NCBI RefSeq assembly: GCF_002854065.1
Contig: NZ_CP024147.1
DNA from: Escherichia coli
Lineage (GTDB): Bacteria > Pseudomonadota > Gammaproteobacteria > Enterobacterales > Enterobacteriaceae
DNA: 64,000 bases
Strand: one strand, 5' to 3'
The notes below the pieces were generated by a model that was not told the DNA's origin, searched no databases, and was given only the letters and a program-made list of their open reading frames with translations. Position 1 is the first letter of the stretch. Each line of letters opens with the position of its first letter. The position numbers and the translations under genes were made by a program. Below, in pieces: positions 52,024-58,515 of this stretch.

Positions 52024-53226
52024 ATGGCAATTAAATTAGAAATTAAAAATCTTTATAAAATATTTGGTGAGCATCCACAGCGAGCGTTCAAATATATCGA
52101 ACAAGGACTTTCAAAAGAACAAATTCTGGAAAAAACTGGGCTATCGCTTGGCGTAAAAGACGCCAGTCTGGCCATTGAAGAAGGCGAGATATTTGTCATC
52201 ATGGGATTATCCGGCTCGGGTAAATCCACAATGGTACGCCTTCTCAATCGCCTGATTGAACCCACCCGCGGGCAAGTACTGATTGATGGTGTGGATATTG
52301 CCAAAATATCCGACGCCGAACTCCGTGAGGTGCGCAGAAAAAAGATTGCGATGGTCTTCCAGTCCTTTGCCTTAATGCCGCATATGACCGTGCTGGACAA
52401 TACTGCGTTTGGTATGGAATTGGCCGGAATTAATGCCGAAGAACGCCGGGAAAAAGCCATTGATGCACTGCGTCAGGTCGGGCTGGAAAATTATGCCCAC
52501 AGCTACCCGGATGAACTCTCTGGCGGGATGCGTCAACGTGTGGGATTAGCCCGCGCGTTAGCGATTAATCCGGATATTTTATTAATGGATGAAGCCTTCT
52601 CGGCGCTCGATCCATTAATTCGCACCGAGATGCAGGATGAGCTGGTAAAATTACAGGCGAAACATCAGCGCACCATTGTCTTTATTTCCCACGATCTCGA
52701 TGAAGCCATGCGTATTGGCGACCGAATTGCCATTATGCAAAATGGTGAAGTGGTACAGGTCGGCACACCGGATGAAATTCTCAATAATCCGGCGAATGAT
52801 TATGTCCGTACCTTCTTCCGTGGCGTTGATATTAGTCAGGTATTCAGTGCGAAAGATATTGCCCGCCGGACACCGAATGGCTTAATTCGTAAAACCCCTG
52901 GCTTCGGCCCACGTTCGGCACTGAAATTATTGCAGGATGAAGATCGCGAATATGGCTACGTTATCGAACGCGGTAATAAGTTTGTCGGCGCAGTCTCCAT
53001 CGATTCGCTTAAAACCGCGTTAACGCAGCAGCAAGGTCTTGATGCGGCGCTGATTGATGCGCCGTTAGCAGTCGATGCACAAACGCCTCTTAGCGAGTTG
53101 CTCTCTCATGTCGGACAGGCACCCTGTGCGGTGCCCGTGGTCGACGAGGACCAACAGTATGTCGGCATCATTTCGAAAGGAATGCTGCTGCGCGCTTTAG
53201 ATCGTGAGGGGGTAAATAATGGCTGA
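52024..53226 (+). CDS. proV: Glycine betaine/proline ABC transporter, ATPase subunit (with CBS domains)
   Basis: 400-aa ORF; Walker [13 protein letters not shown] signature LSGGMRQR. Confidence 0.95.
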
Positions 53227-54283
53227 TCAAAATAATCCGTGGGATGCCACGCCAGCGGCGGACAGTGCCGCGCAATCCGCAGACGCCTGGGGTACACCGA
53301 CGACTGCACCGACTGACGGCGGTGGCGCTGACTGGCTGACCAGTACGCCTGCGCCAAACGTCGAGCATTTTAATATTCTCGATCCGTTCCATAAAACGCT
53401 GATCCCGCTCGACAGTTGGGTCACTGAAGGGATCGACTGGGTCGTTACCCATTTCCGTCCCGTCTTCCAGGGCGTGCGCGTTCCGGTTGATTATATCCTC
53501 AACGGTTTCCAGCAATTGCTGCTGGGTATGCCCGCGCCGGTGGCGATTATCGTTTTCGCTCTCATCGCCTGGCAGATTTCCGGGGTCGGAATGGGCGTGG
53601 CGACGCTGGTTTCGCTGATTGCCATCGGCGCAATCGGTGCCTGGTCGCAGGCAATGGTTACTCTGGCGCTGGTGTTAACCGCCCTGCTGTTCTGTATCGT
53701 CATCGGTTTGCCGTTGGGGATCTGGCTGGCGAGAAGTCCGCGAGCGGCGAAAATTATTCGTCCACTGCTTGATGCCATGCAGACCACGCCAGCGTTTGTT
53801 TATCTGGTGCCAATCGTCATGCTATTTGGTATCGGTAACGTGCCGGGCGTGGTGGTGACGATCATCTTTGCTCTGCCGCCGATTATCCGTCTGACCATTC
53901 TGGGGATTAACCAGGTTCCGGCGGATCTGATTGAAGCCTCGCGCTCATTCGGTGCCAGCCCGCGCCAGATGCTGTTCAAAGTTCAGTTACCGCTGGCGAT
54001 GCCGACCATTATGGCGGGCGTTAACCAGACGCTGATGCTGGCCCTTTCTATGGTGGTCATCGCCTCGATGATTGCCGTCGGCGGGCTGGGTCAGATGGTA
54101 CTTCGCGGTATCGGTCGTCTGGATATGGGGCTTGCCACCGTTGGCGGCGTCGGGATTGTGATCCTCGCCATTATCCTCGATCGTCTGACGCAGGCCGTTG
54201 GGCGCGACTCACGCAGTCGCGGCAACCGTCGCTGGTACACCACTGGCCCTGTCGGTCTGCTGACCCGCCCATTCATTAAGTAA
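53219..54283 (+). CDS. proW: Glycine betaine/proline ABC transporter, permease
   Basis: 354-aa membrane ORF; 8-nt overlap with proV. Confidence 0.95.
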
Positions 54284-54339
54284 CTCTGCACTTGCCCGGT
54301 GACGCCGGGCATATCACCCTGCCAAAAAAAGGAATAACA

Positions 54340-55332
54340 ATGCGACATAGCGTACTTTTTGCGACAGCGTTTGCCACGCTTATCTCTACACAAACTTTTG
54401 CTGCCGATCTGCCGGGCAAAGGCATTACTGTTAATCCAGTTCAAAGCACCATCACCGAAGAAACCTTCCAGACACTGCTGGTCAGTCGTGCGCTGGAGAA
54501 ATTAGGTTATACCGTCAATAAACCCAGCGAAGTGGATTACAACGTTGGCTACACCTCGCTTGCTTCCGGCGATGCAACCTTCACCGCCGTGAACTGGACG
54601 CCACTGCATGACAACATGTACGAAGCTGCCGGTGGCGATAAGAAATTTTATCGTGAAGGGGTATTTGTTAACGGCGCGGCACAGGGTTACCTGATCGATA
54701 AGAAAACCGCCGACCAGTACAAAATCACCAACATCGCACAACTAAAAGATCCGAAGATCGCCAAACTGTTCGATACCAACGGCGACGGTAAAGCGGATTT
54801 GACTGGCTGTAACCCTGGCTGGGGCTGCGAAGGTGCGATCAACCACCAGCTTGCCGCGTATGAACTGACCAATACCGTGACGCATAATCAGGGGAACTAC
54901 GCGGCGATGATGGCTGACACCATCAGTCGTTACAAAGAGGGCAAACCGGTGTTTTACTACACCTGGACGCCGTACTGGGTGAGTAATGAGCTGAAGCCAG
55001 GGAAAGATGTGGTCTGGTTGCAGGTGCCGTTCTCTGCACTGCCGGGCGATAAAAATGCCGATACCAAACTGCCGAATGGCGCGAATTACGGCTTCCCGGT
55101 CAGCACCATGCATATCGTTGCCAATAAAGCCTGGGCCGAGAAAAACCCGGCAGCAGCGAAACTGTTTGCCATTATGCAGTTGCCAGTGGCAGATATTAAC
55201 GCCCAGAACGCCATTATGCATGACGGCAAAGCCTCAGAAGGCGATATTCAGGGCCACGTTGATGGCTGGATCAAAGCCCACCAGCAACAGTTCGATGGCT
55301 GGGTGAATGAGGCGTTGGCAGCGCAGAAGTAA
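54340..55332 (+). CDS. proX: Glycine betaine/proline ABC transporter, periplasmic binding protein
   Basis: Start moved to [21 protein letters not shown] (signal peptide), 330 aa. Confidence 0.93.
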
Positions 55333-55340
55333 TTTTTATT

Positions 55341-55425
<85 letters not shown>

Positions 55426-55523
55426 CCACACCGCACATTTCAACAATCTATCTTTCATCCCATATTCATCAACATCCGCTATTATTGATTTCCAGCTTAA
55501 TCATCACCTGATGAACAAAAATA

Positions 55524-56708
55524 ATGACTAAACCTAATCATGAGCTTAGCCCGGCGCTGATCGTGCTGATGTCTATCGCCACCGGTCTGGCGGTAGCCAG
55601 TAACTATTACGCCCAGCCATTGCTCGACACCATCGCGCGTAACTTTTCCCTTTCCGCCAGTTCGGCAGGCTTTATTGTTACCGCCGCGCAGTTGGGCTAT
55701 GCCGCAGGTCTACTGTTTCTTGTTCCCCTCGGTGATATGTTTGAACGCCGCCGCCTGATTGTCTCGATGACCTTACTGGCAGCGGGCGGTATGTTAATCA
55801 CTGCCAGCAGTCAGTCACTGGCGATGATGATCCTCGGTACGGCATTAACCGGTTTATTCTCAGTCGTGGCACAAATTCTGGTTCCGCTGGCAGCGACGCT
55901 GGCTTCACCGGATAAACGCGGCAAAGTGGTTGGCACCATTATGAGCGGTCTGCTGTTGGGGATATTGCTGGCACGAACCGTTGCCGGGTTACTGGCAAAC
56001 CTCGGCGGCTGGCGCACCGTCTTTTGGGTTGCCTCGGTGTTAATGGCTCTGATGGCGCTGGCATTATGGCGTGGTCTGCCACAAATGAAATCAGAAACCC
56101 ACCTCAACTACCCACAGTTGTTGGGTTCCGTTTTCAGCATGTTTATCAACGATAAGATCCTGCGCACCCGCGCGTTGCTGGGCTGCCTGACCTTTGCCAA
56201 CTTCAGCATTCTCTGGACCTCAATGGCCTTTTTGCTTGCCGCCCCACCTTTTAACTACAGCGATGGTGTCATTGGTCTGTTTGGGCTTGCGGGAGCTGCC
56301 GGAGCGTTGGGCGCTCGTCCGGCGGGCGGTTTTGCCGACAAGGGCAAATCGCACCACACAACAACTTTCGGTCTGCTTCTGCTGTTACTTTCATGGCTGG
56401 CAATCTGGTTTGGTCACACTTCCGTACTGGCGCTGATTATCGGCATCCTGGTGCTGGACCTCACCGTGCAGGGCGTGCATATCACTAACCAGACGGTAAT
56501 TTATCGAATACATCCTGATGCGCGTAATCGCCTGACCGCAGGTTACATGACCAGCTACTTTATTGGCGGTGCCGCCGGATCGCTAATTTCAGCCTCAGCC
56601 TGGCAACATGGCGGTTGGGCTGGCGTTTGTCTGGCTGGCGCGACGATTGCCCTGGTTAACTTACTGGTCTGGTGGCGAGGTTTTCATCGTCAGGAAGCCG
56701 CAAATTAA
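55524..56708 (+). CDS. ygaY: MFS transporter YgaY (intact reading frame)
   Basis: 394-aa uninterrupted ORF with about 12 hydrophobic segments. Confidence 0.85.
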   Translation: MTKPNHELSPALIVLMSIATGLAVASNYYAQPLLDTIARNFSLSASSAGFIVTAAQLGYAAGLLFLVPLGDMFERRRLIVSMTLLAAGGMLITASSQSLAMMILGTALTGLFSVVAQILVPLAATLASPDKRGKVVGTIMSGLLLGILLARTVAGLLANLGGWRTVFWVASVLMALMALALWRGLPQMKSETHLNYPQLLGSVFSMFINDKILRTRALLGCLTFANFSILWTSMAFLLAAPPFNYSDGVIGLFGLAGAAGALGARPAGGFADKGKSHHTTTFGLLLLLLSWLAIWFGHTSVLALIIGILVLDLTVQGVHITNQTVIYRIHPDARNRLTAGYMTSYFIGGAAGSLISASAWQHGGWAGVCLAGATIALVNLLVWWRGFHRQEAAN

Positions 56709-56831
56709 GCAATCAGCAACCGTTTTCGTGGCTTTACACTTATAAGGGTGTTAAGAAGCCCATCAGTCTGATAAGGTTAAGATATTCATTCAGTCTATTT
56801 ATAATATTAACAATCGTTAAGCGTACACTCT

Positions 56832-57569
56832 ATGGAAAGCCCTACTCCACAGCCTGCTCCTGGTTCGGCGACCTTCATGGAAGGATGCAAAGACAGTTTA
56901 CCGATTGTTATTAGTTATATTCCGGTGGCCTTTGCGTTCGGTCTGAATGCGACCCGTCTGGGATTCTCTCCTCTCGAAAGCGTTTTTTTCTCCTGCATCA
57001 TTTATGCAGGCGCGAGCCAGTTCGTCATTACCGCGATGCTGGCAGCAGGGAGTAGTTTGTGGGTTGCTGCACTGACCGTCATGGCAATGGATGTTCGCCA
57101 TGTTTTGTATGGCCCGTCACTGCGTAGCCGTATTATTCAGCGTCTGCAAAAATCGAAAACCGCCCTATGGGCGTTTGGCCTGACGGATGAGGTTTTTGCC
57201 GCCGCCACCGCAAAACTGGTACGCAATAATCGCCGCTGGAGCGAGAACTGGATGATCGGCATTGCCTTCAGTTCATGGTCATCGTGGGTCTTTGGTACGG
57301 TAATAGGGGCATTCTCCGGCAGCGGCTTGCTGCAAGGTTATCCCGCCGTTGAAGCAGCATTAGGTTTTATGCTTCCGGCACTCTTTATGAGTTTCCTGCT
57401 CGCCTCTTTCCAGCGCAAACAATCTCTTTGCGTTACCGCAGCGTTAGTTGGTGCCCTTGCAGGCGTAACGCTATTTTCTATTCCCGTCGCCATTCTGGCA
57501 GGCATTGTCTGTGGCTGCCTCACTGCGTTAATCCAGGCATTCTGGCAAGGAGCGCCCGATGAGCTATGA
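56832..57569 (+). CDS. ygaZ: AzlC-family branched-chain amino acid (L-valine) exporter, large subunit
   Basis: 245-aa membrane ORF. Confidence 0.9.
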
Positions 57570-57894
57570 GGTTCTGCTGCTTGGGTTACTGGTTGGCGCG
57601 GCGAATTATTGCTTCCGCTATTTGCCGCTGCGCCTGCGTGTGGGTAATGCCCGCCCAACCAAACGTGGCGCGGTAGGTATTTTGCTCGACACCATTGGCA
57701 TCGCCTCGATATGCGCTCTGCTGGTTGTCTCTACCGCACCAGAAGTGATGCACGATACACGCCGTTTCGTGCCCACGCTGGTCGGCTTCGCGGTACTGGG
57801 TGCCAGTTTCTATAAAACACGCAGCATTATCATCCCAACACTGCTTAGTGCGCTGGCCTATGGGCTCGCCTGGAAAGTGATGGCGATTATATAA
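57559..57894 (+). CDS. ygaH: AzlD-family exporter small subunit
   Basis: 111-aa membrane ORF; 11-nt overlap with ygaZ. Confidence 0.9.
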
Positions 57895-57984
57895 CCCACA
57901 AGAATCATTTTTCTAAAACAATACATTTACTTTATTTGTCACTGTCGTTACTATATCGGCTGAAATTAATGAGGTCATACCCAA

Positions 57985-58515
57985 ATGGATAGTTCGTTTA
58001 CGCCCATTGAACAAATGCTAAAATTTCGCGCCAGCCGCCACGAAGATTTTCCTTATCAGGAGATCCTTCTGACTCGTCTTTGCATGCACATGCAAAGCAA
58101 GCTGCTGGAGAACCGCAATAAAATGCTGAAGGCTCAGGGGATTAACGAGACGTTGTTTATGGCGTTGATTACGCTGGAGTCTCAGGAAAACCACAGTATT
58201 CAGCCTTCTGAATTAAGTTGTGCTCTTGGATCATCCCGTACCAACGCGACGCGTATTGCCGATGAACTGGAAAAACGCGGTTGGATCGAACGTCGTGAAA
58301 GCGATAACGATCGCCGCTGCCTGCATCTGCAATTAACGGAAAAAGGTCACGAGTTTTTGCGCGAGGTTTTACCACCGCAGCATAACTGCCTGCATCAACT
58401 CTGGTCCGCGCTCAGCACAACAGAAAAAGATCAGCTCGAGCAAATCACCCGCAAATTGCTCTCCCGTCTCGACCAGATGGAACAAGACGGTGTGGTTCTC
58501 GAAGCGATGAGCTAA
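57985..58515 (+). CDS. mprA: MarR-family repressor MprA (EmrR)
   Basis: 176-aa [52 protein letters not shown]... Confidence 0.93.

Follow-up and report, generated by a model that had tools for sequence, protein, structure and literature searches.

We conclude with high confidence that ygaY in the window (the whole 64,000-nt stretch of Escherichia coli DNA analyzed here) is the intact wild-type allele of a gene encoding a 12-helix MFS inner-membrane transporter; this confidence is a joint one, attaching to our best explanation as a whole, with the loss of the gene in K-12 and the reading of its product as an exporter included. Both the listing of open reading frames and a reading of the sequence itself gave exactly one uninterrupted frame across the gene, with no internal stops (Table 1). 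The first-pass annotation had described an intact gene of 394 codons, and this description held. A hidden internal frameshift was looked for and is absent, the frame being collinear with the 394-aa orthologs and gapless against that of BL21. Compared with full-length orthologs, the window copy is neither frameshifted nor truncated, contains no premature stop, and thus does not qualify as a pseudogene. By its location at the b2681 position and its high identity, it belongs to the ygaY ortholog group. The DNA of strain 100416 is 100% identical to the window over 1601 nt, and RefSeq annotates the same 1185-nt CDS there (WP_032281479.1, "MFS transporter"). The gene also lies where it had been placed, between the proU system and ygaZH: proVWX is found upstream, and ygaZ and ygaH are found downstream, followed by emrR and emrA.

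Table 1. Features of the ygaY locus, in positions of the window
Feature	Position	Strand	Description
proV	52024-53226		Upstream of ygaY
proW	53219-54283		Upstream of ygaY
proX	ends 55332		Upstream of ygaY
REP/BIME-type palindromic element	55342-55419	+	Rfam naRNA4 (RF02564), 76.4 bits vs. gathering score 59.5
AT-rich leader 5' of ygaY	55420-55523	+	35% GC vs. 55% in the gene
ygaY CDS, intact	55524-56708	+	ATG start, 394 aa plus stop, 12-TM MFS transporter
7 nt absent from K-12 ygaY (GGCAGCG)	55778-55784	+	Gene nt 255-261, codons 85-87, predicted TM3
7-bp tandem duplication site	55778-55791	+	Imperfect in the window: GGCAGCG GGCGGTA
ygaZH promoter	56777-56805	+	TTAAGA-17-TATAAT, 10/12 consensus positions, in the ygaY-ygaZ spacer
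ygaZ	56832-57569		Downstream of ygaY
ygaH	57559-57894		Downstream of ygaY

The same annotation had taken ygaY to be a disrupted pseudogene in K-12, and this proved correct. In the MG1655 annotation, ygaY (b2681) is a 1178-bp pseudogene, and the BW25113 gene carries the annotation flag "frameshifted." We ran the pairwise alignment with K-12 that the annotation had proposed and located the lesion; the K-12 gene is neither intact nor identical to the window copy. The two alleles sit at the same locus with the same neighbors, and their DNA is 97% identical (97.1% against the K-12 strain BW25113 over 1601 nt, with proX and ygaZ on either side). Against MG1655, the gene differs by 35 substitutions and by one indel only, the 7 bp listed in Table 1, whose absence splits the K-12 reading frame, whereas the window copy is uninterrupted. 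Once the K-12 frame is restored, 34 of the substitutions are synonymous and one is nonsynonymous (N209S), so that apart from this residue the downstream frame encodes the same protein.

Translation of the first frame in K-12 runs for 88 aa to a TGA stop. This stop overlaps the ATG (ATGTTGA, gene nucleotides 261-267 in MG1655) of a 305-aa open reading frame that continues in the original frame. The older ygaX/ygaY naming, used in Shimada et al. (2014, PMC3946193), arose because the deletion leaves two open reading frames in K-12. The overlapping arrangement is typical of translational coupling, and judged from its sequence, YgaY could conceivably be produced in K-12 as two fragments. Because the break lies in mid-TM3, these are unlikely to reassemble into a functional protein.

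Comparison of haplotypes showed what had been lost. The deleted 7 bp correspond to one unit of a tandem repeat that is present in two copies in closely related haplotypes. At this site, BL21 carries a perfect 7-bp tandem duplication (ACT-GGCGGCA-GGCGGCA-TG), the record for EcN_Sk carries a version matching at six of seven positions, and K-12 retains exactly one unit. Most economically, the K-12 deletion would be the product of replication slippage, the slipped-strand loss of one repeat unit in the K-12 lineage.

To survey the lesion across the species, a 90-nt probe spanning the K-12 junction was compared with complete genomes, and it found matches in 5411 of 5426. Of the 5411 genomes, 354 carried the junction at ≥99% identity; none matched at 95-99%, and the remainder aligned over 97 nt. 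Since the probe alignment spans 97 nt in these remaining genomes, they keep the 7 bp. Sixty of the 354 deletion carriers were listed by name, and all 60 are K-12 laboratory derivatives (MG1655 variants, C600, J53, DH5alpha, DH1, NCM3722, HMS174, RR1, and others). On this evidence, only the laboratory lineage of K-12 appears to carry the 7-bp loss. The suggestion that the window strain may retain a transporter lost by the laboratory reference was right about the loss, which is real in K-12, but not in implying that retention is unusual: an intact ygaY is normal for the species, with the 7 bp kept in ∼5057 of the 5411 genomes (∼93%). We also considered whether the K-12 pseudogene might be a sequencing or annotation artefact of the reference, with the gene really the same in K-12. 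We found no support for this idea, and we put its probability close to nil, because the identical junction recurs in 353-354 independent assemblies, including those of MG1655, W3110-type strains, DH5alpha, DH1, C600, J53, NCM3722, and HMS174.

An intact 1185-nt ygaY is annotated in BL21 (the other common laboratory strain), CS5L, O157:H7 Xuzhou21, EcN_Sk, and ST131, and only ∼13 of the 5426 genomes have no near-full-length match to the gene. The gene order is the same in BL21, O157:H7, ST131, the EcN_Sk record, and Citrobacter, all with ygaY intact; Citrobacter keeps the whole series nrdF-proVWX-ygaY-ygaZH-emrR-emrAB. The length of 394 aa is shared by orthologs in E. fergusonii, E. albertii, E. 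marmotae, Shigella, and Citrobacter, with identity still at 93% in the last. Among the non-K-12 rows of a spread sample of 39, none showed a frameshifting change in length. Pairwise dN/dS among seven E. coli alleles was 0.00-0.05, with dS up to 0.18. These ratios indicate strong purifying selection on ygaY and a recent origin of the K-12 lesion. Each of the five non-K-12 lineages sampled has the gene complete and under such selection.

Two records depart from the common pattern in small ways. The ygaY of EcN_Sk (NZ_CP172017.1, 225-1409) has one synonymous change relative to the frame-restored K-12 allele and encodes the same protein as BL21 (WP_000165699.1). Nissle is presumably of a distant (B2) lineage, and the closeness of this allele to K-12 could reflect recombination at the ygaY locus or the identity of the record. 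In the crow isolate RM10410 (NZ_CP042350.1), ygaY (224-1405) encodes 393 aa because the poly-Leu run of TM9 is shorter by one Leu codon, a loss that keeps the frame; in the same record, proX (1-32) is frameshifted and annotated as a pseudogene.

Disruption of ygaY was also seen once outside K-12. The urinary isolate S115 (NZ_CP158441.1, 2292-3457) carries an independent 19-bp frameshifting deletion, corresponding to window positions 55775-55793, and its gene is annotated as frameshifted. This deletion, which has a 2-bp TT microhomology at its flanks, overlaps the site of the K-12 7-bp loss. The GC-rich repeat that codes for LAAGGM may act as a minor hotspot for deletions locally. We also considered whether a more general mutational hotspot causes ygaY to be lost often and rejected this, since loss is rare.

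We then examined the DNA on either side of the gene. The spacers measure 191 nt between proX and ygaY and 123 nt between ygaY and ygaZ. The former is also 191 nt in K-12 and is 291 nt in BL21 and S115, where it holds one REP unit more, making REP copy number variable among strains. The REP-type element of this spacer also matched naRNA4 (RF02564) on the - strand, at 46 bits, and an Rfam scan of positions 54000-58500 for structured RNAs gave nothing beyond this REP-derived match. BLAST found a median of nine places per genome because REP copies exist elsewhere in the genome. The proX-ygaY spacer is the source of an Hfq-binding aptamer, "ig-proX/ygaX," with a K1/2 of 11 nM (Lorenz et al. 2010, PMC2887942). 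Downstream of ygaY, the hexamers of the ygaZH promoter (Table 1) are those of a constitutive RpoD promoter listed between ygaY and ygaZ (Shimada et al. 2014, PMC3946193). With ygaZH served by its own promoter, ygaY is therefore a separate unit. For a ygaY terminator, the consensus scan returned only intragenic terminator-like matches at chance level.

The protein is a true MFS member. It matched Pfam MFS_1 (PF07690) with an E value of 1.1e-40 and a score of 140 bits, well above the cutoff of 33.4. The first-pass annotation had noted a full set of hydrophobic segments, and these were recovered both as ∼11-12 hydrophobic stretches in a Kyte-Doolittle scan and as 12 long helices in an AlphaFold2 model (mean pLDDT 95.4, pTM 0.93), which adds a short linker helix at residues 196-209. 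The model has the MFS architecture of 12 helices in two six-helix bundles, and Foldseek matched it to 460 MFS chains in the PDB at E ≤ 0.001. Ranks 1-11, 13, and 14 of these matches were SotB, MdfA, and NorA, making DHA1 transporters its closest structural relatives. Sequence matches in the PDB were weak and similar in kind: SotB and EmrD over the full length and the glucose transporter GlcP, the best of them, over the N-half only.

To define the family, we carried out an exhaustive HMMER search, which returned 1148 representatives (50% clustering) at E ≤ 1e-30, and built an 87-sequence alignment for modeling. In the MFS, motif A (G-x-x-x-D-x-x-G/E-R-R/K) occupies the TM2-TM3 loop and is echoed in the TM8-TM9 loop. 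YgaY has this motif as PLGDMFERRRL (residues 68-78), with P68 invariant and G70 and D71 conserved in ≥90% of the 87 sequences, and it has the second-half echo as GGFADKG (residues 268-274), with G268 and D272 likewise at ≥90%. Across the 87 members, the family forms of the motif and its echo are PLGDxxERRRL and GRLxDRG. DHA1 antiporters further carry motif B (R-x-x-q-G) in TM4 and motif C (G-x-x-x-G-P-x-x-G-G) in TM5. In the TM5 of YgaY (SGLLLGILLARTVAGLL) and in the family consensus (SGLLIGILLARTVSGLL), the 87-sequence alignment showed no Gly-Pro. The motif B arginine is absent as well: TM4 (residues 99-126; consensus LxGLxSVVAQVLVPLAA in the same alignment) is free of Arg, Lys, and His. The family instead conserves R151 in TM5 (86 of 87 sequences) and D312 in TM10 (78 of 87), the latter being the only well-conserved intramembrane acidic residue in the alignment. 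R336 is near-invariant alongside these two.

Curated models placed the family outside every named subfamily. No curated NCBIfam cutoff, those for SotB/PRK03545, Bcr/CflA, Cmx/CmrA, EmrD, and AAHS included, was reached by YgaY or by any of its 87 relatives. The best scores for YgaY were 73 bits against a cutoff of 418 and 65 bits against 401, and its full-length matches to the SotB-type PRK03545, Cmx/CmrA, Bcr/CflA, and EmrD models were all below threshold. In public sources, the relatives are named only "MFS transporter" or "predicted arabinose efflux permease." YgaY thus resembles DHA1 exporters and fits no named subfamily. Its family is a large and entirely uncharacterized MFS clade.

Among characterized transporters, the best structural match of YgaY is SotB (YdeA), the E. 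coli sugar efflux transporter of the DHA1 group (PDB 6kki, 6kkj, 6kkk, and 6kkl). The two proteins have the same size and the same 12-TM architecture, and the YgaY model superimposes on 6kkl with a TMq of 0.85, a TMt of 0.90, and an rmsd of 2.4 Å over 380 columns. YgaY aligns to SotB over residues 13-383 and to the PRK03545 model over residues 11-390. However, identity to SotB is just 17%, the 65-bit score falls far under the family cutoff, and we found no evidence linking YgaY to sugars. The DHA1 multidrug:H+ antiporters MdfA, NorA, EmrD, and Bcr/CflA share motif A with YgaY, and the fold match to multidrug antiporters lies at TM 0.80-0.84 (MdfA 0.84, NorA 0.81). In contrast to these antiporters, the YgaY family has R151 and D312 in place of the TM4 arginine and the TM5 Gly-Pro, and no drug phenotype has been reported for YgaY.

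Given this fold and these motifs, YgaY would almost certainly work by alternating access, driven by the proton-motive force. D312 and R151, singled out by their conservation, are the candidate site of proton/substrate coupling. As for the direction of transport, YgaY is most probably an exporter (H+ antiporter) of a small organic solute, a reading by analogy to which we give about an even chance. It is favored because the best full-length sequence and fold matches are DHA1 efflux pumps (SotB, MdfA, NorA, Bcr/CflA, and Cmx), and it rests on resemblance and not on membership, since motifs B and C are absent and no NCBIfam cutoff is reached. The main rival is an MFS uptake system (a solute:H+ symporter or a uniporter), which we regard as possible but doubtful. 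It can draw on the top single NCBIfam score, that of the aromatic acid/H+ symporter model TIGR00895 (73 bits, a partial N-terminal match over residues 20-187), on GlcP as the best sequence match in the PDB, and on the lack of antiporter motif C. However, the TIGR00895 and GlcP matches cover only the generic N-terminal half of the MFS fold, whereas the full-length sequence and fold matches (SotB, MdfA, NorA, Cmx, and EmrD) are all to efflux pumps, and ygaY has no linked catabolic or regulator gene in E. coli, in Citrobacter, or in four distant relatives. Nor did genomic context give a substrate clue in those relatives, the homologs in Corticimicrobacter, Gilliamella, Salinisphaera, and Paenibacillus having no shared neighbor. 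In the literature searched, no transport assay or phenotype was found for YgaY, and the names ygaX, STM2812, b2680, and b2681 led to nothing relevant except one Hfq-SELEX paper.

Published expression data on ygaY concern the K-12 pseudogene only. Its transcript is low and rises moderately after hyperosmotic shock, a rise that has been ascribed to proU read-through and that is larger when StpA is absent; the K-12 ygaY region also has a minor H-NS ChIP peak and makes an H-NS-dependent 3C contact with the downstream regulatory element (DRE) of proU (bioRxiv 10.1101/2023.07.10.548347; bioRxiv 10.64898/2026.02.10.705075). The low transcript, the ChIP peak, and the 3C contact in K-12 would suit a gene that is silent or cryptic in the window strain, intact but mattering mainly as DNA, as a site where H-NS bridging contributes to repression of proVWX. 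So would the AT-rich leader, in which the sequence offers no obvious Shine-Dalgarno and a consensus scan found no σ70-like promoter. That scan is insensitive, however, with 1.7 matches expected by chance, and the low dN/dS at a dS of up to 0.18 exceeds what a role at the DNA level alone explains. Conservation of the 394-aa frame into Citrobacter also speaks against silence. We consider such silence improbable. Equally slim, in our judgment, are the prospects of a further proposal, in which the YgaY clade is a distinct MFS subfamily with Arg151/Asp312 coupling in place of motifs B and C and YgaY is an osmotically induced exporter beside the ProU uptake system. Read-through from proVWX on osmotic shock could then induce intact ygaY, which would act within a conserved proVWX-ygaY-ygaZH-emrRAB transport cluster. 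If this proposal were true, the null state of K-12 would have kept the physiological role of YgaY in export by wild E. coli hidden so far.

That intact ygaY is the norm of the species and the K-12 pseudogene a peculiarity was already known, both states being present in reference annotations. Added here are the exact lesion and its tandem-repeat origin, with slippage as the probable route; the finding that the deletion, seen in 354 of 5411 genomes, appears limited to K-12 derivatives; a second, independent deletion at this site in the clinical isolate S115; and the description of a family in which a conserved R151/D312 pair stands in place of the motif B arginine and the motif C Gly-Pro of DHA1 proteins. 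In the E. coli literature, ygaY has figured as a pseudogene or neutral integration site, as a control deletion, and as a flanking marker in studies of proU chromatin. Integration sites in ygaY described as neutral are neutral in K-12 only. For a transporter that strong purifying selection maintains in the rest of the species, K-12 is naturally null, and knockout and fitness screens in K-12 are therefore uninformative on its role. Because the lesion is a single defined loss of 7 bp, ygaY could be restored in K-12 by one small edit.
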